In this document: positions 7,765 to 28,311 of the stretch, in pieces
Layout: each line of letters begins with the position of its first letter
How positions within the stretch are numbered: the stretch's first letter is position 1
Assembly: GCA_040222015.1 (NCBI GenBank)
Contig: JAVJWO010000208.1
Coordinates: 1-31,267, forward strand
Direction of reading: 5' to 3'
Source of the DNA: Coleofasciculus chthonoplastes F2-STO-03
Lineage (GTDB): Bacteria; Cyanobacteriota; Cyanobacteriia; Cyanobacteriales; Coleofasciculaceae
DNA: 31,267 nt
The notes under the pieces: generated by a model
The model's input: the letters and a program-made list of their open reading frames with translations, nothing else
The model's database searches: none
What the model was told of the DNA's origin: nothing
Made by a program: the position numbers and the translations under genes

Positions 7765-7804
7765 GATAAATTTTGATAATTCAAGCTATAGCACCCATTA
7801 CAGA

Positions 7805-9726: not shown

Positions 9727-9734
9727 TTGCTCCC

Positions 9735-9796
9735 TGACTCTTGACAAATGACTCTTGACAAATGACAAATGACAAATGACAAATGACAAATGACAA
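9735..9796. repeat. Heptamer tandem repeat (TGACAAA)n, STRR-type
   Basis: About nine TGACAAA/TGACTCT units immediately upstream of the lysC RBS (AGGAG 9802-9806). Confidence 0.9.
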
Positions 9797-9814
9797 GGTG
9801 TAGGAGCAAGATTT

Positions 9815-11647: not shown

Positions 11648-11889
11648 GAGTGTCCATTAATTCTTACTAATGATTCTCTTAGTACATTGATATCGTAGGC
11701 TTGGAGTTGTCCAAGTTTCCTCAAAACCAGGGTTCTCTCAACTGTCGTAACGATCGCTTTTACCAGGAGGCAAGTCGCGGATTTTTTTAATTAGCGTTTG
11801 TTCAAAAGAATTGAGGATAACTGTATTATTCATACTTTGAGTATAGTTTGTATGGCTTATTTTAGCATCTCAGACAAAAAGCGAGTTAC

Positions 11890-13179
11890 TCAAGGCTTTT
11901 GATCTAAACGAATCGCCCGCTCCAACGCCGTTTTTTCTCTTGACCGACGAACATAAGGCTCTAATTCTTTGACATCTAAACCGCTTAAAATACTCAAATC
12001 CTCCACATTCATCCCTCTCATTAGCATTTCCACACACCATGTCTGTCGCGCTTGCTCAATTGAGGGAGATGGCGTTTCCAACTCAGAGGTAAAGTTACGC
12101 CATGCAACTCTTAATTCTGCCACAGACATCCGTTCCAAGGCTTCATTAACAAACAAGGGTGAGCGATCATCTTTACGACTTTTGAGCCATTGGTTTAAGG
12201 GATTGCGGGTGTAAGAACCATAGCGCTTACCCATAATCCACTGATTTACAGGGACTTGGCGCACGTTACCTTGAGTCACTTGCAATAAGTGTCTGTGAGT
12301 GTCACTAATTTGGTGCGATCGCTCTAAGGCAATAATTTCTTCTATCCGCAACCCCGCACCAAAGAGGACATAGGCGATAGCATAATCCCGTAATCCGCTT
12401 TTTTTGGCTTGTTGCAAAATGTCATGAACTAACGATGCGGGTAAATCGGCTACAGTCTCAGAGGAGATCACCGGAGAAGGCGCATTTGGTGAAGAATTGG
12501 TTACAGGCGGGCGCACTGTCTCCCCTGTGTCGCCGCTTCCCGGTTCTTCCTCCGCCTCTTCCCGTCTCTGTAGCTCTGTGTCTGCAAAAGCTCCGTGTAA
12601 GATGAGTTCGAGCAAACTTTGCAAAAACTCCTCCTGACTTTGCCACAGCTGGTGGAACTCGCTAGTTAGTTCAATCACCAGATACCCGAATAACATCACA
12701 TTAACCAAGCGGGCTAATTTTCCCGCCGACAATCGCAACACTAAGCGATCGCGTTGAATCACGGTGGTAAGATAATCAGCAAAGTCCAGGTTGGCTTGAG
12801 TAACCCCTTCTCCTAACGCCTGACGATGCTCAACCGTATATTTTCCTGACTCCCCAACCACAGAGCGCAGTAATTCGGGCATCTGTTTGAGAACCTGAAG
12901 GCGATCGCGTCCATAGTTGATCAGCGCCTGCTCAAATGTCGTTGTCTGATCGACTTGGGCTCTGAGTGATTCACCCAGACGGGTAAACACGCCAGAGTCT
13001 TCGATCACGGCTAAAAGCAATCCTTGTTTGTTACCAAAGTGACGGAACAGTGTGACTTCATTAACCTGGGCTAATTCAGCAATCTGACGTGTGGTTGTCT
13101 CAGTAACCCCCTGAACGGTAAACAACTCAAGCGCTGCTTGAATTAAACGCGCTCGTGTTGTAGAACTGGTACGAGACAT
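11890..13179 (-). CDS. TetR-family regulator fused to a C-terminal tyrosine-recombinase-like domain
   Basis: N-terminal TetR HTH (RARLIQAALELF...TTTRQIAELAQVNEVTLFRHFGNKQGLL). C-terminal RDYAIAYVLFGAGLRIEEIIAL (integrase box I) and QARQTWCVEML...LSG...PY (degenerate box II). Confidence 0.85.
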   Translation of the reverse strand: MSRTSSTTRARLIQAALELFTVQGVTETTTRQIAELAQVNEVTLFRHFGNKQGLLLAVIEDSGVFTRLGESLRAQVDQTTTFEQALINYGRDRLQVLKQMPELLRSVVGESGKYTVEHRQALGEGVTQANLDFADYLTTVIQRDRLVLRLSAGKLARLVNVMLFGYLVIELTSEFHQLWQSQEEFLQSLLELILHGAFADTELQRREEAEEEPGSGDTGETVRPPVTNSSPNAPSPVISSETVADLPASLVHDILQQAKKSGLRDYAIAYVLFGAGLRIEEIIALERSHQISDTHRHLLQVTQGNVRQVPVNQWIMGKRYGSYTRNPLNQWLKSRKDDRSPLFVNEALERMSVAELRVAWRNFTSELETPSPSIEQARQTWCVEMLMRGMNVEDLSILSGLDVKELEPYVRRSREKTALERAIRLDQKP

Positions 13180-13189
13180 AGTTTAACAA

Positions 13190-13258
13190 TGTAAGTGATA
13201 CTTGCATTTTGATGGAGTAGTGGTTAAGCTGATGGTATAAGTGTAAGTAAAACTTGCA
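13190..13258. promoter_or_regulatory. Two copies of an imperfect palindrome TGTAAGT-N3-ACTTGCA; probable TetR operators in the divergent promoter
   Basis: TGTAAGTgatACTTGCA (13190-13206) and TGTAAGTaaaACTTGCA (13242-13258); a -10-like TGgTATAAG lies at 13233-13241. Confidence 0.75.
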
Positions 13259-13289
13259 CCTCAATTCCTACTGTAACGATTCTCAATAG

Positions 13290-14138
13290 ATGACTAATTC
13301 CTCAATCTCAGCGCCTCCTCAAAGTCGCGCTAATCTACCCTTCCATTGGCCCAGTCTGCTGTTTTTTGGCACAATTCACGCCTTGGCACTGCTGGCGCCC
13401 TGGTTTTTTTCATGGTCAGCCTTGGGAGTAATGATACTTCTCCACTGGCTCTTTGGCAGCATTGGCATTTGTTTAGCCTATCATCGGCTTTTGACCCATC
13501 GGAGTCTTCAAGTGCCTAAGTGGTTAGAATATATCCTGACCACCATCGGTGCTGTAGCTCTCCAAGGAGGACCAATCTTTTGGGTAGCAGGACACCGTCA
13601 GCACCATGCTCACCCTGATGATGCAAACAAAGACCCTTACTCAGCACGAAATGGGTTTTGGTGGAGTCACATGCTTTGGCTGTTCTATCATAAGCCCGAA
13701 TTTTTTGATTACGACGTATATCAAAAATACGCTCCTGATATCGCTAGAGATCCTTATTATCGCTGGTTAGATCGCTATTTCTTATTGTTACAACTTCCGC
13801 TGGGTCTATTGCTTTACGTCGTCGGGGGATGGCAATTTGTATTCTGGGGTGTCTTTGTCCGAGCTGTACTACTGTGGCACAGCACCTGGTTAATTAATTC
13901 TGCCACTCACCTGCGCGGTTATCAGACTTATGAAGTTAATGATGGGTCTCGCAATCTCTGGTGGGCAGCTATCTTAACCTACGGAGAAGGTTGGCATAAC
14001 AATCACCACGCTCATCCCAATGTTGCTCCGGCTGGACGTAAATGGTGGGAAATCGATATGACGTGGTGGGCAATTCAAATCCTGCAAGGAGTAGGTTTAG
14101 CAAAAAAAGTCGTCCTCCCGCCTAAAAAGACAGCTTAG
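13290..14138 (+). CDS. desC: Delta-9-type acyl-lipid/acyl-CoA desaturase (DesC-like)
   Basis: Three His boxes HRLLTH, HRQHH, HNNHH; GEGWHNNHH and WWEID motifs; TM segments. Which DesC paralog it is cannot be determined here. Confidence 0.85.
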   Translation: MTNSSISAPPQSRANLPFHWPSLLFFGTIHALALLAPWFFSWSALGVMILLHWLFGSIGICLAYHRLLTHRSLQVPKWLEYILTTIGAVALQGGPIFWVAGHRQHHAHPDDANKDPYSARNGFWWSHMLWLFYHKPEFFDYDVYQKYAPDIARDPYYRWLDRYFLLLQLPLGLLLYVVGGWQFVFWGVFVRAVLLWHSTWLINSATHLRGYQTYEVNDGSRNLWWAAILTYGEGWHNNHHAHPNVAPAGRKWWEIDMTWWAIQILQGVGLAKKVVLPPKKTA

Positions 14139-14189
14139 TCAAGCTCTGGTGGGAATTTAAAAGTATGACGGTATGTGACGCAACGTTAG

Positions 14190-14219
14190 TGTAGAGACGT
14201 TGCATGCAACGTCTCTACA
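14190..14219. repeat. Palindromic GTAG-type REP downstream of desaturase (possible RNA stabiliser or terminator)
   Basis: TGTAGAGACGTTGCATGCAACGTCTCTACA, a perfect palindrome of the same family as 11105-11138. Confidence 0.85.
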
Positions 14220-14544
14220 ACTATCAAAAAGGTTTTCACTCCTAACCCGGTTTCTATGAATACTTGACCGACGGGTTGTTTTGTATAGAAATATTAAAGT
14301 TTATTTATTAGGATTGCGTGTTGCTTTCAAACATGGAAAAATATACACATTGTTTTTGACTTGATCACCGAGATAGCTATCACTATTAATCGGTCTGAAT
14401 TTGAGTCAATCAGCCCGACCCGGTTCATTCAAGTCTGAGAACCTAAAATAATAGATCCACGGGTTCCCACCAAAATTAACAACCTAACCCTATAGATTTC
14501 CACCCATTCAGGTAACAAATGTAATGACAACAACATAAACCCTG

Positions 14545-15855
14545 ATGTCGCAAGTCTATACCAAAGATTTTGAAATTCAATGTCCTCCCCAACAACGCAG
14601 TTGGAGAAAAATTGCACAAGAAATTGGCAATCTTCCTTTACCTGGTGTTCCGATTCGCTTGATTTTAACCAAGGTTGACGGAGATACGCTCACCTTTGAA
14701 TCCAGCTTTATCGAGACGGATAGAGAGCCGGTTTGGTCATCATTACTTGATATTAATCTGCGTCAACGGGTTTCTGCCCAACCCTTTGTCGCCGTGAGTA
14801 TTATTCCGACAGGCGTTAGAGCCGAAATTGGCGGTTTTGCTGGAGATGCGACTCCGAGTACGAATCTTTTAGCGGCGGCTTGTGATTATCTGGTGACTAA
14901 TCCCAATGCTGTAACCGCATCGGATATCTATTTGGCTCAGGATAATGTGCTTTACCTGGAGGGGAATCTGATTTGTCAGTTACTACTAGGTAATATTGGC
15001 GTGATCCCACAGAAGCGCAACACTATCGCCGCGATTATTGAGAAGCCACGAGATCAGCGATTTTTAAACAATGTTCTTAATGCTCTCAATGGCTTGCGGG
15101 CTGTGGGCGGAATTAATATTGATCCGGTTGTTGTCACCGGTGGGGCAGTGGAAACTGCTTGTACCTATTCCCCGTATGGTAATGCTTCTGGGGAATTTAA
15201 CGGGATGGAGGAGTTGATCAAGGCGTTAGATGTGGTGGAAACGTCTTCCGCTAGAGCGGTGGCGTTAATCACGACGTTGCACGTTGATGATCAAGTGCGT
15301 CAAGCCTACTACCAAGGAGAGTCTATTCCCAATCCTTGGGGTGGTGCGGAAGCGATTATGACTCATCTGACAACTAATTTCTATCCGTTTACGGCTGCCC
15401 ATGCCCCTTTATTATTGGAGTGGGAACATACGGGATTTGGTAAATTAGTCGATCCCAGAGATGGTGCTGAATTAATTTCTAGTGCTTATGTTTGTTCGCC
15501 TTTACAGGGTTTAATTAATTCTCCCCGCCCGGTAAGGTTTGATACCCCCGTAGCCCCAGGGGAAACCCGCATATCTGTAGAGAATGTTTCGGCGGTAGTG
15601 ATGCCAGAAACAACTGTGGGGAATATCCCTTTCTTGGCGTCGTTAGACCAAGGTGTGCCGATAATCTTAGTCAAAGATAATCCCACCAAGTACGATATTA
15701 CCCCGGAACGGTTGCAAATTGAGACCCAAGGCAGAAAAATATATCGTGTCAATAGCTACATGGAGGCTTCGGGATTGCTGTTAGCGTTACGGAATGGTAT
15801 TGCCGTTGAGAGTATAACTCGTCCGCTCCCACAAATTGAGCCAATTTTCTTGTAG
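14545..15855 (+). CDS. DUF3326-family protein with about 80-aa N-terminal extension; first gene of biosynthetic operon
   Basis: IIPTGVRAEIGGFAGDA, TNPNAV, LYLEGN, PWGGAEA, AHAP, VDPR..AE motifs, recalled as DUF3326. Confidence 0.75.
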   Translation: MSQVYTKDFEIQCPPQQRSWRKIAQEIGNLPLPGVPIRLILTKVDGDTLTFESSFIETDREPVWSSLLDINLRQRVSAQPFVAVSIIPTGVRAEIGGFAGDATPSTNLLAAACDYLVTNPNAVTASDIYLAQDNVLYLEGNLICQLLLGNIGVIPQKRNTIAAIIEKPRDQRFLNNVLNALNGLRAVGGINIDPVVVTGGAVETACTYSPYGNASGEFNGMEELIKALDVVETSSARAVALITTLHVDDQVRQAYYQGESIPNPWGGAEAIMTHLTTNFYPFTAAHAPLLLEWEHTGFGKLVDPRDGAELISSAYVCSPLQGLINSPRPVRFDTPVAPGETRISVENVSAVVMPETTVGNIPFLASLDQGVPIILVKDNPTKYDITPERLQIETQGRKIYRVNSYMEASGLLLALRNGIAVESITRPLPQIEPIFL

Positions 15856-15902
15856 CCAAGGCTGAAACTTGATCTTGGAGAAAGCTTAGAGGAGTAAGTT
15901 TC

Positions 15903-17087
15903 TTGAATTGTACGGAAAAATCCCAATTATCTTCATCTGACAACCTTCAAATTCAATCTTGGCAAACTGGAGACAAGGGAATCGAAGTGGATTATGTCTC
16001 TGGAGTCACCAATACTTTAAATAGGGTAAGCTTGCCGTGGATGTGGCTGCGAGATCACTGTCAATGTAGTTCCTGTTTCACCTCTACGGCACAGAGAGAA
16101 TGTGATGTATTCATTGGCTGGGATAAATTTAGATGGGAGGAAGTCTTTGTCGATACCGATCCCGCCGGGCTGATTATTCAATGGCAGGATAATCACAAAA
16201 GTTACTTTTCTTCCGATTTGCTATGGAAAATGCTCAACATTGAGAACTCCGTAGCCGTCGATGAACGAACATACTGGACGAATGATTTACCCAGTCTTGA
16301 TTATCGAAATGTCCTGGATACAGATATCGGATTAAGACAGTTGGTTGAATATGTCGCACAAGTCGGAGTATGTAAAGTTACGGGTGCTAAGCCGAGTAAA
16401 GCTGACGCGGCTAAACTTATGCAGAGAGTTGCCTATCTTCGGCAGAGTCATTTTGGCAATCTCGTCGAAATTAAGCCATCAAGTCATTCCGGCTATGATG
16501 AAACACATATTCATACCGAGGGAACGTTTAATTACGATCCTCCAGGGATTAAATTAGTTCAATGCCTGGACAAAAATACTTCCCCCTGCGAACTAATTTT
16601 GGTAGACGGGCTGGTGCTTGTTGACAGAATTAAACGTGAAGCACCGCAGACTCTAGGTTTATTACAAAATCATCGGGTGTCTTATCAGTACCTGAATCAG
16701 GATATTAATTTGATTGCTTCCGATTCGGTTGTCACCCTAGATCGGTATAATCGACTCAAGCGTATCCGCTACAATCGGAAAACCCAAGGTTCTTTTTCCG
16801 AGCCGGATTTAGCCAAAAAACAAGCGTTTACAGCCGCTTTTGAGCAGTTTGAGGCATGGCTAGATGAGGAATCTCAACAGCGAAAACTCAGCTTGAATCC
16901 AGGAGAAATGGTGCTGTGGGATAATTGGCGTGTCTTGCATGGTGGCGGCGCGATGGATGGCACTCATCACCTTGCCGTTTGCCTGTCAAATATGGAAGAT
17001 TTCCATAGTCGTCGGCGCGTAATTCAGACTAAATCCGATCAACGTCCTGTTCCCCTGGCTCGTGAAAAAAAGGGAGTTAAACCATGA
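15903..17087 (+). CDS. Gamma-butyrobetaine/trimethyllysine hydroxylase-like TauD/TfdA Fe(II)/2OG dioxygenase with N-terminal Zn domain; atypical active site
   Basis: WLRDHCQCSSC and WQDNHKSYF (GBBH-like N domain), HTEGT, WDNWRVLHGG; TTG start with GAGGAG RBS at 15889-15894. Confidence 0.85.
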   Translation: MNCTEKSQLSSSDNLQIQSWQTGDKGIEVDYVSGVTNTLNRVSLPWMWLRDHCQCSSCFTSTAQRECDVFIGWDKFRWEEVFVDTDPAGLIIQWQDNHKSYFSSDLLWKMLNIENSVAVDERTYWTNDLPSLDYRNVLDTDIGLRQLVEYVAQVGVCKVTGAKPSKADAAKLMQRVAYLRQSHFGNLVEIKPSSHSGYDETHIHTEGTFNYDPPGIKLVQCLDKNTSPCELILVDGLVLVDRIKREAPQTLGLLQNHRVSYQYLNQDINLIASDSVVTLDRYNRLKRIRYNRKTQGSFSEPDLAKKQAFTAAFEQFEAWLDEESQQRKLSLNPGEMVLWDNWRVLHGGGAMDGTHHLAVCLSNMEDFHSRRRVIQTKSDQRPVPLAREKKGVKP

Positions 17088-17926
17088 CAAATTTAAGCAC
17101 GATTGACAAAGATTCGACGCGCCAAAATCTCATCCTCTGGACAGCTAATACATTTGCTAATGGGCTACCAACAGTCACTTTCAATGAAGTCATGACTGAA
17201 TCTAGGGGATTAAAAAAATGGTTAGAAAACATTGCCTGTTATGGTTTGGGCATGGTATCAAATACTCCACACAATCGTGAGTCAACCCGCGCCCTGGTTG
17301 AACGGGTAGCCTATATTCGGATGGATATTTTTGGCGGTTTGGCTGACTCCGATATGAGCGAACCCCATGCTGATAGCGCCTATGCCAATGGATATCTTGC
17401 TGCCCACACGGATGGAACTTATGCCTACGATCCGCCAGGACTGATTTTATTTCATGTTCTGGATCGCGATTATAGTGGGGGAGAGAGCATTTTCATTGAT
17501 GGCTTCTATGCGGCAGAAACTCTACGACAATTATCTCCTGACGCTTTCTCTTTGCTTACCCAGGTTGATATGCCAGGACATTACTTAGAAGTTGATACCC
17601 ATTTAGAAACAAGGCAACCTCTAATTCAACTTGATCCGGAAAACCAGGTTAAGCGAATTCGATTTAATCACATGGATCGCGCCCCGTTTTACTGGGGTGA
17701 AAAAACCACACAGGTCTATGAAGCGCTTTGGGAATGGCGTAAAATTATTGATGACCTAGCCAATCAATATCGCTTTCGTCTCACACCCGGAAATGTTCTC
17801 TTGTTTGACAACTGGCGTCTTTTGCATGGACGATTAGCTTATGTAGGGGAGCGGCGCATGGTAAACTGCTATTTGAACATGGAGGACTTTGAAAGCCGAC
17901 TGAGAGGACTTCGAGCAACTCTCTAG
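17084..17926 (+). CDS. TMLH/BBOX-like TauD/TfdA Fe(II)/2OG dioxygenase, catalytic domain only
   Basis: AHTDGTY..DPPG, GGES.FIDGF, FDNWRLLHGR, GERRM; ATGA overlap with the upstream paralog. Confidence 0.9.
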   Translation: MTNLSTIDKDSTRQNLILWTANTFANGLPTVTFNEVMTESRGLKKWLENIACYGLGMVSNTPHNRESTRALVERVAYIRMDIFGGLADSDMSEPHADSAYANGYLAAHTDGTYAYDPPGLILFHVLDRDYSGGESIFIDGFYAAETLRQLSPDAFSLLTQVDMPGHYLEVDTHLETRQPLIQLDPENQVKRIRFNHMDRAPFYWGEKTTQVYEALWEWRKIIDDLANQYRFRLTPGNVLLFDNWRLLHGRLAYVGERRMVNCYLNMEDFESRLRGLRATL

Positions 17927-18021
17927 AGCGTCGGTAAGCGTAACCAAAGTTAGTGGCTCTTAAGAAGTCAAAAGCCTGCCCTCTTTCCGAAGTGAAGGGT
18001 CAAAAGTCAAAATAGAGGAGA

Positions 18022-18068
18022 TAACAAATAACAAATGACAAATGACAAATAACAAATGACAAATGACA
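18022..18068. repeat. Heptamer tandem repeat (TAACAAA/TGACAAA)n overlapping the aldolase start
   Basis: About seven units running from just after GAGGAG (18015-18020) into the first codons of the aldolase. Confidence 0.85.
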
Positions 18069-19129
18069 GAAGAGGTTTTGCCTCAGATAATCAGGCTGGA
18101 GTCGATCCGGAAATGATGAAGGCTATATTAGCCGCTAATCAGGGACACGCTTATGCCTATGGCGAAGATGAATGGACACAGTTAGCGATAGAAGAATTCC
18201 ACAAGCATTTTGGGGCGGATTGTCAGGTATTTTTTACCTTCGGGGGTACGGGTGCCAATGTATTCGCTTTGGCTTGTTTGTGTCGCTCGTTTGAAGCGAT
18301 ATTATGTTCTCGTGATGCCCATTTATACCATAGTGAATGTGGGGCTGTGGAGAATTTCATTGGTAGTAAAGTCGTTCCGATTGAAACGGCGGATGGGCGT
18401 TTAGATATTCAATCTATCAACGGTTATTTGTCTTGGCAAGACGATGTACATGCTTCTATCCCGCGTGTGATATCTATAACTCAGTCTACGGAATTGGGAA
18501 CGGTGTATCGCCCCTATGAGATTTTAGCGTTAGTAGAATATGCCCATCAGCACGGTATGACTGTTCATATGGATGGTACACGTCTGGTTAATGCCGCCGC
18601 TTCACTGAATTGTTCCTTGGCGGCGCTGACGACGGAACTTGGTATCGACGCGGTATCTTTTGGCGGCACTAAAAATGGGTTTTTGATGGGAGAAGCGGTT
18701 ATATTTCCTCACTCTGACGCTGGGTTGTCTCGGAATTTTTCGGCTATCTGGAAACAAAGTATGCAGATGCCTTCAAAATCTAGATTTATCGCTGCCCAGT
18801 TTTTAGCCTTATTTAAAGATGACCACTGGTTACAAAATGCTAGCCATGAAAATAAAATGGCTCAGTATCTTGCTGAACAAGTATCTAATATTACTGAAGT
18901 GGACATAGTGTATCCTGTAGAGACTAATGCTGTTTTTGCTAGAATCCCATTGGATTGGATTGAACCACTGGTCAAGGTTTGTCATTTTCATGTTTGGGAT
19001 AGTTCGACTGGATTAGTCCGATGGATGACCAATTTCGATACTCAGCCTGAAGATATTGAGCTATTTGTCGGCAAGCTTTATTCTCTTTCTCGTGTCTCGG
19101 TAATTCCGGAAAAGTCCATAATATTATAA
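18056..19129 (+). CDS. PLP-dependent low-specificity L-threonine aldolase family protein
   Basis: FASDN, YGED, GGTGAN, ITQSTELGTVY, HMDGTR, SFGGTKNG (PLP lysine). Confidence 0.92.
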   Translation: MTNDRRGFASDNQAGVDPEMMKAILAANQGHAYAYGEDEWTQLAIEEFHKHFGADCQVFFTFGGTGANVFALACLCRSFEAILCSRDAHLYHSECGAVENFIGSKVVPIETADGRLDIQSINGYLSWQDDVHASIPRVISITQSTELGTVYRPYEILALVEYAHQHGMTVHMDGTRLVNAAASLNCSLAALTTELGIDAVSFGGTKNGFLMGEAVIFPHSDAGLSRNFSAIWKQSMQMPSKSRFIAAQFLALFKDDHWLQNASHENKMAQYLAEQVSNITEVDIVYPVETNAVFARIPLDWIEPLVKVCHFHVWDSSTGLVRWMTNFDTQPEDIELFVGKLYSLSRVSVIPEKSIIL

Positions 19130-19135
19130 CAGAGT

Positions 19136-19771
19136 ATGTCTGAAGAAAAAGTCAAAGATATTTCAGAAACAAGACCTTGGTTCTCGATAATTTTTGATAG
19201 CCAAAGCCCTGAGGAATTAAAAACTAAATACGATAGTTGGGCAAATACCTACGATGCAGATATAAGAGACGATTGGTCTTTTATGCCTGTTAATATAGCA
19301 CGGACATTAAGTAAGCTACTTCCGAATAAAGATGCCACAATTTTAGATGCTGGTGCGGGTACGGGGTTAGTGGGTGAAGCGTTGGCACAAGCAGGATATA
19401 CTAATCTAACTGCTGTAGATTTGTCAGAAAAAATGTTAGCGATCGCTGAAGACAAGCAAGTCTATCAAAGCTTGTATCAGTGTAATTTAGAAAATTCCCC
19501 TATTTTTAGCGAATCAGTAAGTTTCGATGCCATTATCGCCGCAGGGGTTTTTACCCATGCTCATGCAGGAGTTAGAGCTTTAAACAATCTATTTGGTCTT
19601 TTAAAGGAAGAAGGACTATTCTTTTTAACCATACGGGAAGACTATCGCAGTGAAATGCAGACAGCTTTAGATAAATTACCCTGGACATTAGTTAGTAAAG
19701 AGGATTTTCATATCTATGATGAAGTCAAGTTGATGTATCTTCTGGCTTTTAAAAAGGAGCGATCACAATGA
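19136..19771 (+). CDS. Class I SAM-dependent methyltransferase
   Basis: Motif I ILDAGAGTGLVG, VDLSEKML, FDAII; YD.WA.TYD N-terminal motif. Confidence 0.9.
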   Translation: MSEEKVKDISETRPWFSIIFDSQSPEELKTKYDSWANTYDADIRDDWSFMPVNIARTLSKLLPNKDATILDAGAGTGLVGEALAQAGYTNLTAVDLSEKMLAIAEDKQVYQSLYQCNLENSPIFSESVSFDAIIAAGVFTHAHAGVRALNNLFGLLKEEGLFFLTIREDYRSEMQTALDKLPWTLVSKEDFHIYDEVKLMYLLAFKKERSQ

Positions 19772-20550
19772 AGAATAAAAGTATTCACAAATCAACTATA
19801 TCTGAGCAACAAACCTTAAAATATAGAAGGTTTGTAAAAATATATGACCGAGAAGATAGATGTGATATTCCCAAATCTGCTTGGAGACCTCTGACAGACA
19901 ATGCCTATTTACAAACTTGGAAAGGGGTACTTCTGGAAAAAGATCCCATGCAAATTGCAGCTTATCCGATGCTGCTTTACGAGTTGCAACCAAAGACAAT
20001 TATTGAGTTGGGCGCTTTGAAGGGAGGAAGTGCAATTTGGTTAGCAGATCACTTAGAATTATTTGGTATTCAAGGTGAGGTTTACTGTGTTGATAACGAT
20101 CTTTCTCAGCTTGATGAAAAAGCTAAAACCGACTCTCGAATTCATTTTATAGAAGGTGATTGCCAAGAAATTAGTGCAGTTTTACCCACAGAATTACTGT
20201 CTAAATTACCTCATCCTTGGTTAGTGATAGAGGATATTCATGACAATCTAGTTGGTATCCTCGAACATTTTCATCACAATGGTTTGCAAACTGGTGATTA
20301 CTTGATTATTGAAGACACCAATAAATTTATGTGGGAAGTTTGGGATGATTGGGAAGATCAAGAATTAATTCAGCGAGGTTTGCGCAAAATGGATGACTTA
20401 AGAAGCTGGTTAATGAAGCATCAAGATGAGTATTTAATCGATACTTACTACCAGGATATGTATGGTTATAATGTTTCCAAGAATTGGAATTCTATATTAA
20501 AAAGAACTTCAAAGAATGAACAAAAAAATCTTATTAGAACAAGAATTTAA
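19768..20550 (+). CDS. CmcI (cephalosporin hydroxylase / O-methyltransferase-like) family protein
   Basis: WKGV.L.KDP, PKTIIELG..GGSAIWLAD, GDYLIIEDT; ATGA overlap with the methyltransferase. Confidence 0.85.
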   Translation: MKNKSIHKSTISEQQTLKYRRFVKIYDREDRCDIPKSAWRPLTDNAYLQTWKGVLLEKDPMQIAAYPMLLYELQPKTIIELGALKGGSAIWLADHLELFGIQGEVYCVDNDLSQLDEKAKTDSRIHFIEGDCQEISAVLPTELLSKLPHPWLVIEDIHDNLVGILEHFHHNGLQTGDYLIIEDTNKFMWEVWDDWEDQELIQRGLRKMDDLRSWLMKHQDEYLIDTYYQDMYGYNVSKNWNSILKRTSKNEQKNLIRTRI

Positions 20551-21100
20551 AAAAACAGGGGCAAAATTTTTTTTAGCCTCTATGGATGATGTTCATATAA
20601 AGCACTTGATACAATTAGCTCAAGTTCCAAACTTAATAGAGTTAATGGATTGGGGCGGGTTGTTTAAAATTGATGAGACAGAAAAATTTATTCAAGCTAT
20701 TTCATTATACGGTTGTCCCTATTCTCGAAAAAGTGAAATATTATTATTGGGAATTTACTTAGAACCAGAAGAATTACCTATTGGATATGTCATACTCAAA
20801 GGATTAAATATGGATTTATTAACTGCTGAAGTTGGGATAGCAATTCTAGACAAAAAATATAGAGATAAAGGATATGGAAGGTTAGCATTAAACAGAATGA
20901 TTATTTATGCCTTTAATAAGCTAAAGATTAAAACCATTGGAGCAACAATTATTAGCTCAAATAAACAATCAATTAATATGTGTAAAAATCTAGGATTTTT
21001 TGTGAGAGAGATTATGCCTAAATCATGGTCTATGGCTAATGGAGAATTAGTAGATATGCTATGGCTCGAATTAACACCAGTTAAACATAAACGCCTCTAA
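20516..21100 (+). CDS. GNAT N-acetyltransferase (RimJ/RimL-like)
   Basis: AEVGIAI..KYRDKGYG acetyl-CoA motif, N..SI.M.KNLGF; overlaps the CmcI gene by 35 nt. Confidence 0.85.
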   Translation: MNKKILLEQEFKKTGAKFFLASMDDVHIKHLIQLAQVPNLIELMDWGGLFKIDETEKFIQAISLYGCPYSRKSEILLLGIYLEPEELPIGYVILKGLNMDLLTAEVGIAILDKKYRDKGYGRLALNRMIIYAFNKLKIKTIGATIISSNKQSINMCKNLGFFVREIMPKSWSMANGELVDMLWLELTPVKHKRL

Positions 21101-21148
21101 TTTTTTTGAGAATTAATAGTATTTATTTAGTTAAATTAAACTCTGAAT

Positions 21149-22345
21149 ATGACTAGAAAAAATTCCAATCTCTGTAAATTATGTGATTCTTATGCTTGGT
21201 TCACGTTTCAAAATAGGCTAGGGAAGAAAATTGAAGAACATCAATTATCAAATCCACAACAAGAACTGTACATGATGACATGGGGTAACACGACTCAACC
21301 TTTACCATCAAAAGTTGTTGAAGCTTTAGTTGATGCTGCTACTAAGCTAGGGAATAAGTCAACTTATACTGGATATGGGGAATATCAAGGAAATATTAAA
21401 CTAAGAGAAGCTATCTGCAACAATTACTATAAAAAGCGTGGAATTGACCTAAAACCAGCAGAAATTTTCGTCAGTGACGGTTCTCAACCTGCGACTTTTA
21501 GTGTTCAACAACTCTTTAGCTTAGATAATGTCATTGGATTACAATCACCAATGTTTTTTCCCTTTTCAGATGAAAATATTTTAGCAGGTAGAAAGAAAAT
21601 TATCTATCTAGAGTGTAACGAGAACAATAATTTTATTCCCGAGCTTCCTACATCAAAAGTTGATATAATTTACCTATGTTTTCCTAACAATCCAACAGGT
21701 GCGGTTGCTACAAAAGAGCAACTAAAAGTCTTTGTTGATTATGCAATAAATCATAATTCAATTATTATTTTTGATGCTGTTTACAGTGTTTTTATCACAG
21801 ATACTAACATTCCCAGAACTATTTACGAAGTAGAAAACGCAACAAAATGTGCTATTGAAATTGGTAGCTTTTCCAAAATGGCTGGATTTACTGGATTAAG
21901 ATTAGGTTGGTCTGTCGTTCCGTTTGATCTAACTGTTGAACACACCGTAGCAGGAGAGTTGACGGAAATGTTTAGAGTTCTTGAACATACAAGGTTTTTG
22001 GGTGCTTCTAATTTAGTACAAAAAGGAGGGATTGTCGCTTTATCACCACAGTGCCAACAAGAGTATCAAAAAATTATCAACTATTATCTGGAAAATGCTA
22101 AAATTCTCAACAAAGGTTTAGAGACTTTTGGACTTAAGTGTTTTGGTGGGAAGAATAATCCTTATATATGGGCTAAAGGAGCGGAAGGGATGAGTTCTTG
22201 GGAAGTTTTTGACCAACTCTTTTCCAAAGCTGGTATTGTTAGCGTACCTGGTAGCGTATTTGGTTCAAGTGGTGAGGGTTTCTTACGTCTAAGCACTTTT
22301 GTTAATCGAGAAGACATAGAAAAGGCAGTAGAAAAACTTTTATAA
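21149..22345 (+). CDS. PLP class I/II aminotransferase, LL-diaminopimelate aminotransferase (DapL)-like paralog
   Basis: YTGYG..QG...LREAI, IFVSDG, YLCFPNNPTG, IFDAVY, SFSKMAGFTGLRLGW, GEGFLRLS. Several family positions deviate (SDGSQP, FFPFSD), which suggests a different substrate. Confidence 0.85.
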   Translation: MTRKNSNLCKLCDSYAWFTFQNRLGKKIEEHQLSNPQQELYMMTWGNTTQPLPSKVVEALVDAATKLGNKSTYTGYGEYQGNIKLREAICNNYYKKRGIDLKPAEIFVSDGSQPATFSVQQLFSLDNVIGLQSPMFFPFSDENILAGRKKIIYLECNENNNFIPELPTSKVDIIYLCFPNNPTGAVATKEQLKVFVDYAINHNSIIIFDAVYSVFITDTNIPRTIYEVENATKCAIEIGSFSKMAGFTGLRLGWSVVPFDLTVEHTVAGELTEMFRVLEHTRFLGASNLVQKGGIVALSPQCQQEYQKIINYYLENAKILNKGLETFGLKCFGGKNNPYIWAKGAEGMSSWEVFDQLFSKAGIVSVPGSVFGSSGEGFLRLSTFVNREDIEKAVEKLL

Positions 22346-22458
22346 AGTATGAACAATAAATCTATTTGGCTGTAGGACTTCATCCTGTCTAAGGCAAAAC
22401 TATACTAAGATAGGGGATATCCAACTTAGCTCAAGTCGTTATCGGAGATTCCTTGTAT

Positions 22459-23256
22459 ATGGCAAAAAATAAGCATATTGCAATGTGGAGTTGTTCTAGA
22501 AGTCGTTCTACTGCTATAGCTCATGCATTCGAGCAACTGGAAGAATGCTTACTGCTGGATTCGCCTTTGTACGGACCTTATGCTTTCCACCAAGGTACTA
22601 GCTTAGATGCCCTATACAGGCAGGAAATAATAGAGCGTTTTGAAACAGACCACACAAAAGTAATTGAAACGATGATTGGTGGTTTACCTGAAGGTATATC
22701 TTTCTCATTCCAGAGGCATATTGCTAGGACTGCATTGCCTCAATTTGGAAGAAATTATCTACAATCTCTCAACAATTTTTTTTTGATAAGGCATCCTAAA
22801 GAAATTATCTTGTCTTGGCGACAGGTTCAAAAGAGGTTTGGGAAAGTAGAGAAAATTACTAGTCAGGATATTGGTATAGATCTACTTTACGATATCTTTA
22901 GAGATGTTGAAAATATTACTAATAAAACTCCCTTAGTGATTGAATCCAGCGACATAGTTAAAAATCCAAGACAGGTTTTGAAGTTTTTGTGTAATCAATT
23001 TGAGATCATTTTTTCCGAAAAAATGTTAAATTGGGATCGAGGATTGAGCAAATCCAAATTATTGCCAGATCACTTGCTTTCGGCATCAAAATATTGGTCA
23101 AAAACTTGGTACTCAACTCTTGTTGAATCCACAGGGTTTATTCCCTATAAAGAAAGAGAGATGGAATTAGATGAAGAATTAGTTCCCCTCTTGGAATTTT
23201 GTCTTCCTTTTTATGAAAAACTACTTGAACATCGTGTTACTTTTGAGATGTTATAA
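22459..23256 (+). CDS. Sulfotransferase-like (P-loop fold) protein
   Basis: IAMWSCSRSRSTA N-terminal loop, FFLIRHPKEIILS, P.VIES.D...NP, F.EKML.W, WY......STGF. ATG at 22459 preferred over TTG 22453. Confidence 0.75.
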   Translation: MAKNKHIAMWSCSRSRSTAIAHAFEQLEECLLLDSPLYGPYAFHQGTSLDALYRQEIIERFETDHTKVIETMIGGLPEGISFSFQRHIARTALPQFGRNYLQSLNNFFLIRHPKEIILSWRQVQKRFGKVEKITSQDIGIDLLYDIFRDVENITNKTPLVIESSDIVKNPRQVLKFLCNQFEIIFSEKMLNWDRGLSKSKLLPDHLLSASKYWSKTWYSTLVESTGFIPYKEREMELDEELVPLLEFCLPFYEKLLEHRVTFEML

Positions 23257-23282
23257 TGAATAAGCTGGGTTCTCAAGCAAAC

Positions 23283-23513
23283 TTAGATATTCAGAGGCAA
23301 AAAAGACGCAAGGTTTCTGGTGAGGATAGGATTCACCCAACACTCCTTGATATCGCTCATGTTCTCCAGGGGCAAAACAAGCATAAGCACCTGAACCCAG
23401 CTTATCCTCTTCCTCCCAAATACAAAGCCAGGTTGAAAATCTCCTGTGCAGATAAGTTGAACTGGGGAAAAGTTGGGGAAACAATAGGAGTATTTCCCGT
23501 AAAGGGCGTCATC
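23283..23513 (-). pseudogene. Chimeric remnant: Uma2 3' fragment fused to amine-oxidase 3' fragment
   Basis: About 23283-23422 aligns with 24667-24806 of the amine oxidase; about 23423-23513 aligns with the Uma2 3' end (about 26495-26585). Confidence 0.85.
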
Positions 23514-23520
23514 GCTTTAC

Positions 23521-23704
23521 CTCGTGAGACCCCAACCTCAGCGAAGCAGGTTGGGGAGGGATAGAGGTCAAACCGAACCACTCAATGTGGTGAGGTTTGA
23601 CAATCCAGGTGAAGGCACGACATTTCGACTTACCTCGACGGTCAGTGAGCTTGTCGAACTGTGGTCAGTGAGCTTGTCGAACTGTATGAGCGAAGTCGAA
23701 ATGT
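23521..23704 (+). mobile_element. Possible IS200/IS605 left-end remnant carrying nested small repeats
   Basis: Follows TTAC (23517-23520). Hairpins CCCCAACCT..AGGTTGGGG and GTCAAACC..GGTTTGAC; 23-nt tandem duplication (23640-23662, 23663-23685) inside inverted repeat ACATTTCGACTT/AAGTCGAAATGT. Confidence 0.5.
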
Positions 23705-23884
23705 AGTCCCTTCCCGCATCTAAACTAAGATGTCCTAACCAAATAGCGACTTGACAAAAAGTCTTAGAGATAATCCGAACTAGGGAAGTATTCGGAAGTC
23801 TGTACCAAGTTTAGACTCAGTGCGGATATTCAACTCTTGCGTTGCTAGATTTGTCTCTAACAATCCCTAACAGAGAAGCGATAG

Positions 23885-24590: not shown

Positions 24591-26123
24591 TCAGCTATTT
24601 TCCAGAACATCAATTGTTGCCGCAAGTGCTGTCTGAATTGCCCCTTGCACAGAAGCATGATTAATACCCAGATGTTCCCCGGCAAAAAAGACGCGAGGTT
24701 GCTGTTGAGGATGGGATTCACCCAACCATCCTTGATATCGCTCATGTTCTCCTGGGGCAAAAAAGGCATAAGAGCCAGAACCCAGTTTAGCCTCTTCATC
24801 CCAAATATAGTGAATTATATCATCAACGTATGGCTCAATCTGAGGATGGAGTTGCTTAACCTCGCGCAATGTCAATTCAGTGCGATCGCGTGCTTCAAGA
24901 GTGCGGAATTTGCGTGAATTCCCTTCCCAACGATAAGCCGCCGTAAATGCAGTCGGTTGATCGGAAAGTTCGCGATCGCGGGCTATCCAGTGAGGATTGT
25001 CTGATTGTTGATCGGCTAAGATGGCATTATCATCAGGATACCAACATTTTTCGATATTTAAGTCAGTAAAACTTCCGCCACCATAAATCCCATCCTCAAA
25101 CTCCCAAGGACGAGCGGTACAGTGAAATAAGGTTTTCGCGGCGCTACAATACCCCAGACTGTTAATCGCTTCCCTTTGTTTAGCAGGTAAAGGCGGATCA
25201 AAATCAATTTGTGCCAAAGCCGTAGCCGGAACCGTACAGATGACACAATCAAACTCGGCGCTTTGTTTACCCTGTAAACTACTCCAGTGGAGTTTAACGC
25301 CAGAATCCGTTAGCTCTATGGCTGTCACCTGAGCTTGAGTCTGAATGTCCCCTGATATTCTTGCCACAAACGCTTTCACCAGGGTTTCCATCCCGCCGAC
25401 TAACTTATACTGTTCTACTCGATGCCAAGCAAAAAAGTCAATTAACCCATTCAAAAGAGAAACTTGATCATAATGGATCATCCCTGTCCCATGACCGACG
25501 AATTCAAAAGCATCAGGAGATAGGCGATCGCGAAAATATTGGGTTAACGAGAGGCTGTCGTATTCTCTGAGTCGGGAGCTGGTGAAGCTAGGGGAAAACA
25601 TCTCCCATTTCTCCTGATCAGACAAAGACTCGATTAACTCCTCTAAAATAGTTTCGTAAATTACCGCCGGATCTTGCTGCTCTTCCGGGGTTAACTTATA
25701 ATTATATAATAGGGGTTGATAATTGTCAAGGCGAGTCTTTTTGCCCCGTAAATAATAATAGGCGGCGGGATTGTAACTAACGAATTGTCTTCTGTCTAAA
25801 TTAAACTTATCCATATAATGGAGGGTGCAACCATGACTAGCCGGAACCCTCATGGCTCCCAATTCTGCATGGCTACCATCATGGAAATAGTGAGTATAAA
25901 TACGACCCCCTAAACGCCCAGAACTTTCCAACAGAGTAACCTGGTGCTGCAATTGACTCAATTCATAAGCACAAGTAAGTCCAGCAATTCCCCCACCGAT
26001 AATACCAATTCTGTGGCGAATTCCTTGGGAATCATAGCTAGCCAGAGAACCCGGATGAGAGTAGAGAAGATCGAAGGAAAAAGGTTGATTTAACTGTTGT
26101 TGATGACGATAAGGATTAAACAT
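24591..26123 (-). CDS. Flavin-dependent amine / L-amino-acid oxidase family protein
   Basis: IGIIGGGIAGL dinucleotide fold, LESSGRLGGR, ELGAMRVP, FFAGEH...ASVQGA. ATG at 26123 preferred because the upstream in-frame extension to 26318 is repeat/promoter DNA. Confidence 0.9.
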   Translation of the reverse strand: MFNPYRHQQQLNQPFSFDLLYSHPGSLASYDSQGIRHRIGIIGGGIAGLTCAYELSQLQHQVTLLESSGRLGGRIYTHYFHDGSHAELGAMRVPASHGCTLHYMDKFNLDRRQFVSYNPAAYYYLRGKKTRLDNYQPLLYNYKLTPEEQQDPAVIYETILEELIESLSDQEKWEMFSPSFTSSRLREYDSLSLTQYFRDRLSPDAFEFVGHGTGMIHYDQVSLLNGLIDFFAWHRVEQYKLVGGMETLVKAFVARISGDIQTQAQVTAIELTDSGVKLHWSSLQGKQSAEFDCVICTVPATALAQIDFDPPLPAKQREAINSLGYCSAAKTLFHCTARPWEFEDGIYGGGSFTDLNIEKCWYPDDNAILADQQSDNPHWIARDRELSDQPTAFTAAYRWEGNSRKFRTLEARDRTELTLREVKQLHPQIEPYVDDIIHYIWDEEAKLGSGSYAFFAPGEHERYQGWLGESHPQQQPRVFFAGEHLGINHASVQGAIQTALAATIDVLENS

Positions 26124-26165
26124 TGATTCAGATACAATTTTCCCACAGCAAAATTCACCCGTACC

Positions 26166-26223
26166 GTAGGGGCACCATCCTTGCGCCCTGCCTGGCTTGC
26201 GCCCTGCCTGGCTTGCGCCCCCT
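26166..26223. repeat. REP-like GTAGGGGC...GCCCCT element with internal 16-nt tandem duplication
   Basis: CTTGCGCCCTGCCTGG repeated twice plus a partial third copy. Confidence 0.7.
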
Positions 26224-26253
26224 AAAACTTGGTACGCCAGTTCAACTCGGTTA

Positions 26254-26317
26254 AATCTAGACAACCGGGCTACCTTGAAGATAATCGGCGTGCGATCGCG
26301 TTTGCTATTATACACCA
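26254..26317 (-). promoter_or_regulatory. Repeated promoter/leader cassette, copy 1 (upstream of amine oxidase)
   Basis: Minus strand GGTGTATAATagcaaacGCGATCGCacgccgattatcttc with a consensus TATAAT; near-identical to 27124-27174 and 28746-28817. Confidence 0.65.
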
Positions 26318-26476
26318 TAGGACTTACGCTTTCTTGACGGCACAGGCGCTACCTGTAAGGGCACGGCAGTGCCGTGCCCCTACCAAGATTGTGGGTGATG
26401 GGCGCATGCGGTGCAGGGCAAAAGCTGGCAAAGGGCGCACAACCTGCGCCCCTACATTCTACCAACGTAAGTCCTA
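26318..26476. mobile_element. MITE-like element with 11-bp terminal inverted repeats and internal REP hairpins
   Basis: TAGGACTTACG (26318-26328) and CGTAAGTCCTA (26466-26476), with TA at both ends; internal hairpin GGGCACGGCAGTGCCGTGCCC. Confidence 0.75.
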
Positions 26477-27384: not shown

Positions 27385-28311
27385 ATGAGACAGTATTCTC
27401 CACTCACAATTGTTTCCTATCTAATCGGTCCGACGCTGATTATCTTTAGCCATATCGGATCGTTACTTGTTTTAATCACGGGTTTATCGTGGGGCGCTTT
27501 CCTATGGATCATATTTTTATATGTTATCCGTATGCTGGCAACAACCGGCATCTACCATCGACTACTCACCCACAAAAGCTATCAAGCTCCGGCTCCAGTT
27601 CTATGGGTGGGAAGTATTGTGGGAGCATCGGCGGGGCAGATGGGTCCAAGTTGGTGGAAAGCACACCATGTAGCCCATCATAAACATGTCGATCAAGATC
27701 TTGATCCCCATTCCCCCTGTACACCCTTTCAGGGGATCAGAGGATTTTATTGGTCTCAAGGAGGTTGGCTACTATCTCCCCGCTTTTTTCCTGCCAAGCT
27801 ACCCGCTGATGTTGAGAGTGATACGGTTTTAAAGGTGATTGACCGTTTGCACTTTATCCCTGTAGTGGCACTTGGGGCAATTTCTTATGTCATGGGTGGC
27901 GTTGAATATCTGGGTGCATTTTTTCTCAGCACAACCCTGCTGTTTCATGGCGTGCAAACCGTCAACTCCCTTTGTCATATTGTGGGGGAACAACCATTTG
28001 TCACCGATGATCTCAGTCGCAATAATAAGTTAGTCGCATTTCTAACTCTGGGTGAAGGCTGGCATAATCTCCATCATGCCTTTCAGTCATCCAGTCGCCA
28101 TGGGATCACTATTTATTCTGGACAGGTTGTCTATCTTCCCGATCCCACATTTAGCTTCATTAAAATGCTTGAGTTCTTAAAGTTAGCGTCAAAGCTTAGA
28201 GTGCCGACTGAAATCAATCTGCTGGCACGTTCCCAGGTTGTAAGCTTTCAGTCTTCCGAGTTGCCAGCTACAGTAAAAACATCGGTAGGTTCTGAACACC
28301 CCTCTAGTTAA
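27385..28311 (+). CDS. Second membrane di-iron desaturase (delta-9-like), divergent
   Basis: His boxes HRLLTH, HVAHH, HNLHH; DPHSP; LTLGEGWHN. Confidence 0.88.
   Translation: MRQYSPLTIVSYLIGPTLIIFSHIGSLLVLITGLSWGAFLWIIFLYVIRMLATTGIYHRLLTHKSYQAPAPVLWVGSIVGASAGQMGPSWWKAHHVAHHKHVDQDLDPHSPCTPFQGIRGFYWSQGGWLLSPRFFPAKLPADVESDTVLKVIDRLHFIPVVALGAISYVMGGVEYLGAFFLSTTLLFHGVQTVNSLCHIVGEQPFVTDDLSRNNKLVAFLTLGEGWHNLHHAFQSSSRHGITIYSGQVVYLPDPTFSFIKMLEFLKLASKLRVPTEINLLARSQVVSFQSSELPATVKTSVGSEHPSS

Follow-up and report, generated by a model that had tools for sequence, protein, structure and literature searches.

The window analyzed here, a stretch of 31,267 nucleotides (contig JAVJWO010000208.1, positions 1 to 31,267, assembly GCA_040222015.1) of the cyanobacterium Coleofasciculus chthonoplastes F2-STO-03, carries a real cyanobacterial gene cluster of a family without earlier description. 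Its product is probably a small methylated compound of the amine type, formed along an unusual route. A diverged paralog of DUF3326 is the family-defining gene of the cluster, and the dioxygenase/aldolase block behind it is a swap for the decarboxylase of related clusters; both points are absent from the first-pass annotation of this DNA. With moderate confidence, the best explanation is a biosynthetic cluster for a small metabolite that is a methylated amine or is derived from an amino-aldehyde, in which a TMLH-like hydroxylase and an aldolase replace a decarboxylase and are followed by methylation through an S-adenosylmethionine (SAM)-dependent methyltransferase (referred to as MT11) and a CmcI-like protein. 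We hold about equally firmly that the family is defined by a DUF3326 paralog, a module that takes the alpha-amino-acid end off a basic, amino-acid-like intermediate, the methyltransferase MT11, and a protein resembling CmcI. Notable features are the exchange of modules, the split oxygenase and the link to DUF3326; the general kind, an amino-acid-derived cluster independent of nonribosomal peptide synthetase (NRPS), is known.

Nine open reading frames (ORFs) on the + strand span positions 14545-23256. The ORF listing agrees with the first-pass annotation in the orientation and coordinates of the nine genes and in their couplings: neighboring frames overlap by 4 nt at 17084 and at 19768 and by 35 nt at 20516, and 6 nt separate the frame ending at 19129 from the next. 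Pfam agrees with the family calls of that annotation for 9/9 genes. Ten loci were compared, including the window, L006 (Moorena producens 3L), L007 (a Scytonema metagenome-assembled genome) and L018-L024. L006 and L007 were found by a scan of species-representative genomes with the shorter of two TauD-family proteins, TauD-short (91% identity in L006 and 78% in L007), and the core and tail of the cluster were mapped by tblastn of 17 window proteins against these two loci, together with Pfam searches of their ORFs. Six genes, DUF3326 (14545..15855), TauD-long (15903..17087), TauD-short (17084..17926), aldolase (18056..19129), MT11 (19136..19771) and CmcI (19768..20550), keep one order across the window, L006 and L007, and the identities of L006 and L007 to the window are 88-89% for DUF3326, 61-77% for TauD-long, 72-84% for the aldolase, 76-81% for MT11 and 65-72% for CmcI. 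The flanks differ among the three loci, and transposase or integrase genes flank both the window cluster and that of L006. Since the six genes recur in order, at 61-91% identity, in two genomes with unrelated flanks, the core arrangement is beyond chance. Conserved co-occurrence elsewhere, which the first-pass annotation had left to be checked, was thus found in both L006 and L007.

The other three genes, encoding a GNAT acetyltransferase (20516..21100, +; Pfam Acetyltransf_3, 1.7e-12), a DapL-type aminotransferase paralog (21149..22345, +; Pfam Aminotran_1_2) and a Sulfotransfer_5 protein (22453..23256, +; Pfam, 9.5e-21), form a tail of very low GC. GC content drops along the cluster from 46% (DUF3326) to 30% (GNAT, 29.7%), and the GC content at third codon positions (GC3) of the tail genes is 23-30%, against a mean GC of 44% for the window; MT11 and CmcI are low in GC in L006 and L018 as well. 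Among the ten loci, all three tail genes occur together in the window only. No counterpart of the GNAT or the DapL-like gene was detected in the nine other loci compared, and the sulfotransferase recurs loosely, as a 25%-identical homologue on the opposite strand in L006 and as a 59-residue fragment match in L018. The operon of nine genes proposed at first is therefore conserved as a core of six, and its extension to the tail is not shared by the relatives. The acylation and sulfation proposed for the product along with it therefore concern the window lineage alone.

The module swap was recognized from the relatives of the DUF3326 gene. In all seven of the other loci (L018-L024), OKR_DC_1, an Orn/Lys/Arg-decarboxylase-type pyridoxal phosphate (PLP) enzyme, is located directly 3' of DUF3326, and in the window, L006 and L007 this slot of the decarboxylase is occupied by TauD-long, TauD-short and the aldolase. 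In L018, L019 and L020, MT11 (63-73% identity to the window protein) and then CmcI (82-87%) come after the decarboxylase, so that these clusters differ from that of the window in carrying a decarboxylase in place of the three genes; the contig of L019 ends just after CmcI. The 6-nt junction before MT11 is identical in the window and L018-L020. The DUF3326 proteins of L018-L020 are 84-88% identical to the window copy, and the identity is 84-89% for both variants overall. In the DUF3326 tree the two variants were not separable, and the sole supported clade (98/100) was an NRPS-linked group, which consists of L022, L023 and L024 and in which the DUF3326/decarboxylase pair is accompanied by a B12-radical-SAM enzyme, an NRPS A-T-C, another methyltransferase and a MatE exporter. 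This arrangement suggests that, in the NRPS-linked variant, an amine derived from DUF3326 and the decarboxylase undergoes condensation with a thioester of the acyl or aminoacyl type. These three loci (G050, G166 and G164) carry one or two OKR_DC_1 genes and show weak similarity to DUF3109, with a score under the Pfam cut-off. In L021, the DUF3326/decarboxylase pair is followed by an EamA transporter and an FAD oxidase, and a PhyH-type or proline-3-hydroxylase-like dioxygenase is located near the cluster in L019 and L018. Among solved structures, the sister-locus decarboxylase matches best 2x3l (7.9e-31), a member of the Orn/Lys/Arg decarboxylase family that is itself uncharacterised, and this match does not fix the substrate.

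The cluster copy of DUF3326 (+ strand) scores about 240 bits (239) on PF11805, against 585 bits for the other copy of the same genome on contig C134. In an even sample of 401 cyanobacterial genomes, 8 contain the paralog at E ≤ 1e-80, the present genome among them, and the source names of the subfamily include Okeania, Cylindrospermopsis, Raphidiopsis, Aetokthonos, Anabaena, Scytonema, Gloeotrichia and a few non-cyanobacteria. In L020 (G274:C1), the DUF3326 gene at about 15570-16886 on the - strand contains internal stop codons (1 TAG and 1 TAA) in an otherwise intact decarboxylase-type cluster and is therefore likely a pseudogene.

The two TauD-family proteins (both encoded on the + strand) are not equivalent. 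In Pfam, TauD-long carries GBBH-like_N and TauD domains, and TauD-short carries TauD without GBBH-like_N. Both score best on the TMLD, BBOX and TmpA models of NCBIfam, below the cut-offs, and their best PDB matches are BBOX and TmpA; TauD-short gave 223.2 bits (cut-off 268.3) on TMLD TIGR02410, with profile positions 88-360 covered. Residues were mapped by alignment to human BBOX and to source-named TMLD/BBOX proteins, and the roles of the TMLH/BBOX residues were taken from the available part of PMC7764450. In TauD-short, the metal triad H108, D110 and H248 is kept, aligning with BBOX H202, D204 and H347, and the 2-oxoglutarate (2OG) arginines R250 and R257 (TMLH R391 and R398; BBOX R349 and R360) are kept in all three orthologues. 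Asp97, also in all three, occupies the alpha-ammonium position of TMLH D231, where TMLD-named proteins have Asp and BBOX-named proteins have Asn. At the aromatic cage, F83, Y100 and Y263 are kept and Trp is replaced by Ala87 in each of the three orthologues, so that the cage is not complete (TMLH Y217, W221, Y234). The Asn equivalent to BBOX N292 is kept in both TauD-short and TauD-long. Altogether, of 12 positions in the catalytic site and pocket, TauD-short shares 11 with TMLD-named proteins, and its nearest non-orthologous relatives are proteins source-named trimethyllysine dioxygenase. The gene is rare: at E ≤ 1e-30, only 2 of the 401 genomes gave a match, and the match outside the present genome is only 30% identical; six other database clusters are 76-92% identical. 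From these residue patterns, TauD-short is predicted to be a catalytic Fe/2OG hydroxylase of the TMLH type. Full-length proteins of Alphaproteobacteria (Dongiaceae, Kiloniellales) named 'trimethyllysine dioxygenase', including P0129, P0162, P0136 and others, have the complete TMLH pocket with the cage Trp.

TauD-long keeps the metal ligands H204-x-E206...H346, with D or E at 206 among orthologues, and the Cys3His site for Zn (Cys53/55/58/His98). In contrast to TauD-short, it has Gly at the equivalent of BBOX R349 and His at that of R360 in four of four full-length orthologues, indicating the loss of both 2OG arginines; the alpha-ammonium position is variable (H, N, D, S) and the cage residues also vary between orthologues. 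It forms an isolated lineage with two representatives at 59% identity and the rest at 33% or below (2005 hits). The predicted complex of TauD-long and TauD-short, the genes of which overlap by ATGA, scored 0.89, against 0.40 for the best of three controls. Of 157 solved complexes, 116 attained this mark, as did 2 of 215 mismatched pairs; since the present prediction was made with custom alignments, these counts apply only roughly. At least 60% of contacts are common to the runs, the partner shows a predicted local distance difference test (pLDDT) of 86, and the predicted interface includes residues 42-73 of the N-terminal domain of TauD-long. TauD-long is thus probably, according to these models, a non-catalytic subunit supplying the N-terminal Zn domain that TauD-short is without. 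Of the two Fe/2OG dioxygenases initially listed, both have the TauD fold, but TauD-long, without the 2OG arginines, is not the equal of its partner.

The aldolase (+) is a threonine-aldolase-type PLP enzyme (Pfam Beta_elim_lyase, PF01212, 1.3e-49), matching the L-threonine aldolase of PDB 5vye with E 3.8e-85 over residues 1-338. It contains an SFGGTKNG motif, the Lys of which is presumably the PLP lysine. The logic of hydroxylase followed by aldolase, as proposed in the first-pass annotation, is in agreement with the closeness of TauD-short to TMLD (223 bits and the pocket pattern) and with the 5vye match.

The combination of a hydroxylase of the TMLH/BBOX clade with an adjoining threonine-aldolase-type PLP enzyme resembles the first two steps of eukaryotic carnitine synthesis, TMLH and HTML aldolase. 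In a strict carnitine-type pathway, MT11 would trimethylate free lysine, TauD-short would be TMLH, and the aldolase would be HTML aldolase, giving 4-trimethylaminobutanal and then a betaine or amine osmolyte (gamma-butyrobetaine or carnitine-like). The TMLD model as top NCBIfam match for both dioxygenases, before BBOX and TmpA, agrees with such a pathway, as do the pocket pattern of TauD-short, the pairing of aldolase and hydroxylase as in eukaryotes, and weak matches of MT11 to amine and lysine N-methyltransferases. Like eukaryotic TMLH, TauD-short has the alpha-ammonium Asp, both 2OG arginines and three of four aromatic cage positions; it differs in the Ala at the cage Trp, found in all orthologues, and in having the N-terminal Zn domain on a separate degenerate paralog. 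The scores stay under the equivalog cut-offs, and TauD-long, the would-be BBOX, has no 2OG arginines, leaving the cluster without a competent BBOX. No aldehyde dehydrogenase (TMABA-DH) was detected in the clusters of the window, L006 and L007, to the ORFs of which this search was confined. Furthermore, the genes are embedded with DUF3326, MT11 and CmcI, and a strict carnitine pathway leaves DUF3326, CmcI and the substitution by decarboxylase in related clusters unexplained. We therefore consider it unlikely.

The second known system to be compared is the guanitoxin (gnt) pathway, for which the available part of one preprint describes GntG retro-aldol cleavage followed by GntE transamination (bioRxiv 10.1101/2023.03.21.533663). 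The logic of converting a beta-hydroxy amino acid to an aldehyde and glycine, with subsequent amination and N-methylation, is common to this pathway and the route proposed here, and both have a cyanobacterial host. The window aldolase, however, gave 85.5 bits on NF041359 (GntG; cut-off 230), and NF041364 (GntC) gave 158.8 bits (cut-off 415). The hydroxylase is of the TMLH clade, and the window is without arginine-cyclising enzyme, kinase and N-hydroxylase. The earlier statement that the gene set is not gnt is thus in agreement with these scores far below the cut-offs, the distinction being drawn by the GntG and GntC models only.

MT11 (+), a class-I SAM methyltransferase (Pfam Methyltransf_11, 1e-15), has METTL27 as best PDB match (1.1e-13) and matches weakly PrmA, glycine/sarcosine N-methyltransferase, PmtA and Methyltransf_16; judged by these sequences, it is probably an N-directed methyltransferase. 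Six of the ten loci with the DUF3326 paralog contain it, and in each of them the gene next to it on the 5' side is that of the aldolase or the decarboxylase. The CmcI-family methyltransferase-like protein (+; Pfam RMNT_CmcI, PF04989, 6.3e-17, 62.4 bits, cut-off 23.2) matches PDB CmcI 2br3 (2.7e-23), is 65-87% identical in five other loci, and gave 57.5 bits on the rhamnosyl-methyltransferase equivalog, against a cut-off of 400. The likeness to the saxitoxin tailoring enzymes SxtX and SxtN drawn in the first-pass annotation extends, in these data, to the shared Pfam family of the CmcI-like protein.

The junction between aldolase and MT11 bears on the unity of the cluster. The two proteins are encoded by one ORF in L006 and L007 (584 or 574 aa), and likewise in Moorena P0388. 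The window reads ...IIL*QS-M at this junction, and L006 and L007 read through with Glu at the stop codon; the 6-nt gap of the window thus represents an in-frame TAA and two codons (19127..19135, +), followed by the conserved Met of the methyltransferase domain, which split the aldolase::MT11 fusion of L006 and L007. An aldolase of the same length with 97% identity, source-named Coleofasciculus chthonoplastes, ends at the same residue. The fused form is a minority: among the best 120 of 4848 hits, Moorena cluster P0388 shows it, as does L007, and six orthologue clusters of 73-84% identity are unfused. The fusion argues against two unrelated adjoining units, an amino-acid-modifying set (DUF3326, TauDs, aldolase) and a low-GC set for the tailoring of glycans or lipids (MT11, CmcI, GNAT, aminotransferase, sulfotransferase). 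A division of this kind would agree with the change in GC from 43-46% to 30-38% at 19136, with the rhamnosyl O-methyltransferases of the CmcI family, with a weak match of GNAT to PseH, and with the frequent occurrence of sulfotransferases and aminotransferases in glycan modification. However, MT11 and CmcI follow the DUF3326 module in six of ten loci, the aminotransferase is of the DapL type and not of the DegT sugar class, and no glycosyltransferase was found by Pfam among the ORFs scanned in the window. The division into two units is quite improbable.

Downstream of the nine genes, a candidate associated gene for an L-amino-acid-oxidase-like flavoprotein is located at 24591..26318 on the - strand (Pfam Amino_oxidase, 1.3e-59). 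Its best PDB matches are L-amino acid oxidases (2.2e-45), and homologues of 64-67% identity are found beside the cluster in L007, L018 and L020, making four of ten loci with the window. This gene could be taken for part of a catabolic or salvage operon, in which methylated lysine or related cationic amino acids would be converted to glycine and an aldehyde; the release of usable glycine by hydroxylase and aldolase, and the catabolic character of TmpA-type relatives (by family name), point in the same direction. Against it, the conserved core includes two methyltransferases, no transporter or regulator was found inside the cluster by Pfam, sister clusters couple the DUF3326 module with NRPS A-T-C and a MatE exporter, and the patchy distribution in 8 of 401 genomes is typical of specialised metabolism. 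The two core methyltransferases and the NRPS A-T-C/MatE partners in three of ten loci suggest a biosynthetic rather than a catabolic role, and a catabolic operon appears very improbable.

For the biosynthetic cluster, the following order of steps can be proposed. The starting compound would be a basic, possibly N-methylated, lysine-like cationic amino acid, the origin of which may involve DUF3326 and the oxidase. TauD-short, probably as a heterodimer with TauD-long, would hydroxylate C3 of this amino acid, and the aldolase would then release glycine, leaving an amino-aldehyde with two carbons fewer. Methylation of the product would follow, by MT11 and the CmcI-like protein. In the window lineage, the DapL-type aminotransferase (aldehyde to amine), GNAT (N-acetylation) and sulfotransferase (sulfation) probably tailor the product. 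In the sister clusters, decarboxylation would instead lead to an amine one carbon longer.

With respect to the tail enzymes, the DapL-like protein passes the TIGR03542 cut-off (446.3 bits, cut-off 364.7), and the housekeeping copy on contig C162 gave 609 bits. As the tail gene is a second copy, 42% identical to the housekeeping gene, its function may differ. Its closest relatives, 52-54% identical, were found in 3 of 400 other genomes, none of them in a DUF3326 cluster. These relatives of the DapL paralog (L031 8159-11061, L032 7586-10300 and L033 8070-10808) are accompanied by D-2-hydroxyacid dehydrogenase in three of three cases and by a small SET-domain protein in two. No PDB sequence match was obtained for the sulfotransferase. 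As a separate orphan cluster with a protein of the same Sulfotransfer_5 family, L034 (G172:C60:62500-81500) carries at about 7200-14200 on the - strand an Orn/DAP/Arg decarboxylase, an HD-domain protein, Sulfotransfer_5, 2-hydroxyacid dehydrogenase, an AlaDH-like protein, SDR and methyltransferases. It also includes two full-length TauD genes, one of them with GBBH-like_N, and the pairing of TauD with HD recalls TmpA/TmpB.

The role of DUF3326 can be considered in the light of pavettamine biosynthesis in Burkholderia s.l. The available part of a 2026 preprint reports that the DUF3326 protein PavB and the Rieske/PLP-decarboxylase PavA, the decarboxylase domain of which is described as alanine-racemase-fold, are both needed for N-(5-aminopentyl)pentane-1,5-diamine, a C5-N-C5 triamine (bioRxiv 10.64898/2026.06.12.731819). 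This preprint, as far as available, was the only source of functional data on DUF3326 that was found. The pairing of DUF3326 with a PLP decarboxylase is shared by pavABC and the seven of seven sister loci, the likeness being by domain, without comparison of the PavB sequence. In contrast to pavABC, as described there, no Rieske, decarboxylase or JmjC (PavC) domain was detected in the 27 window ORFs, and the decarboxylase of the sister loci is OKR_DC_1. Because the PavB/PavA genetics parallel the DUF3326-plus-decarboxylase pair of the sister loci, a role of DUF3326 in joining amine units is suggested. By extension of this analogy, DUF3326 might be a new C-N bond-forming enzyme that joins an amine to an aldehyde or imine, with the split TMLH-like hydroxylase and aldolase feeding the amino-aldehyde, and the product might be a new methylated (here acetylated and sulfated) polyamine-like metabolite; we consider this extension tentative and rather doubtful. 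If true, the family would be a modular system, widespread in cyanobacteria and present in some other bacteria, by which unusual polyamines are made.

The AlphaFold2 model of DUF3326 (pLDDT 86, predicted template modelling score 0.90) gave no match above a template modelling (TM) score of 0.25 in Foldseek against PDB. A wide structure search gave a generic alpha/beta plateau (best Z 10.1, root-mean-square deviation 3.0, 108 aligned residues; rank 50 still Z 8.6), including LacI/periplasmic-binding proteins, GT-B glycosyltransferases and Asp/Glu-racemase-like enzymes. Refolding without the N-terminal 75 residues gave a pLDDT of 62, and a protein atlas search with DUF3326 yielded DUF3326 clusters only.

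Several points weigh against the proposed biosynthetic route. These generic fold matches of the DUF3326 model do not define its role. TauD-short is below the TMLD cut-off, and trimethyllysine itself may not be the substrate since the cage Trp (TMLH W221) is Ala in every orthologue. The passing score of the heterodimer may reflect likeness only, because BBOX homodimers are solved. No aminotransferase was detected in the L006 or L007 cluster, and an amine end-product is therefore not general. The link of GNAT and DapL to the core is adjacency only, given the lack of counterparts in nine loci and the low GC3 of the tail. Finally, promoter and terminator scans were uninformative, being not above shuffles (26 found against 29.2 expected, and 10 against 9.3), and give no support for a single transcript.

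No description of this gene set was found in open-access papers and bioRxiv, supplements being outside the search. The cluster offers a genomic handle on DUF3326, a widespread domain for which the functional data found come from one 2026 preprint on a livestock toxin. The natural swap between decarboxylation and hydroxylation/retro-aldol cleavage in one slot before the same methyltransferase predicts pairs of related metabolites with a defined difference. The split TMLH-type oxygenase, composed of a catalytic subunit and a degenerate Zn-domain subunit, would, if true, be a new quaternary arrangement for the clade, and carnitine-type chemistry would be placed in a prokaryote, where, as one abstract states, the pathway is not seen. 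By the source names of close relatives, the hosts are mat- or bloom-forming Coleofasciculus, Moorena, Scytonema and Cylindrospermopsis (the last for the DUF3326 paralog), and a small cationic metabolite from such hosts would be of ecological and possibly toxicological interest; a role as toxin is pure speculation.

Parts of the stretch are contained in 13 public sequencing runs, the best share being 0.32. One metatranscriptome library includes contigs of 97-98% identity to parts of DUF3326, TauD-long, the aldolase/MT11 junction (18968-19206), MT11 and the oxidase. Metatranscriptome libraries can contain DNA, and the contigs show no transcript ends, structure or strandedness, so that they give a weak hint at expression. 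DNA contigs of marine metagenome X1 are colinear with 15819-21921, indicating that the gene order between TauD-long and the DapL-like gene, GNAT included, is the same in a relative. Within these contigs, 20026-20998 (the CmcI end and GNAT) shows 0-3 differences, against about 6% divergence elsewhere, a hint that strains are mixed here or that the low-GC tail was recently exchanged. The segment 22340-23273, including the sulfotransferase, is uncovered by the contigs of the four runs compared, which is uninformative either way.

The 129-nt spacer between TauD-short and the aldolase contains a tandem repeat of a heptamer (ACAAATG/ACAAATA), read from the sequence at 18021..18066 (no strand assigned), which runs into the aldolase start codon. 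The heptamer repeat has at least 100 matches genome-wide, often in a 28-nt register, and within the window it is also present at about 14190-14250 and 23763-23807. At 18024-18068, very high contig depth and loose contig ends were observed in four of four metagenome runs compared. Runs X1 and X3 have 78 different letters in place of the spacer 17927-18066. TTG start codons are used at 15903 (TauD-long) and 22453 (sulfotransferase).

As to the surroundings of the cluster, no NRPS or polyketide synthase (PKS) domain was detected by Pfam among the 27 window ORFs scanned, in agreement with the absence of a scaffold synthase in the first-pass annotation. A tenth ORF at 23256-23564 was assigned to no family by Pfam. 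The flanks of the window include genes for bilin reductase, an HlyD/FtsX/ABC exporter, a four-ACT aspartate kinase and Uma2 (Pfam). The aspartate kinase (9815-11647) was considered as a lysine-supply module and rejected, since an opposite-strand TetR-integrase gene and a desaturase intervene and no match is present in L006 or L007. Fatty-acid desaturase paralogs at 13290-14138 (+) and 27385-28311 (+), 34% identical, flank the region of cluster, oxidase and Uma2, and neither was matched in L006 or L007. The intervening ORF at 11890-13179 (-), which lies a short way upstream of the cluster, encodes 429 aa with a TetR DNA-binding domain at the N-terminus and a phage-integrase (tyrosine recombinase) domain at the C-terminus, and a TnpB/Cas12f-like gene is located at 7820-9085 (-).

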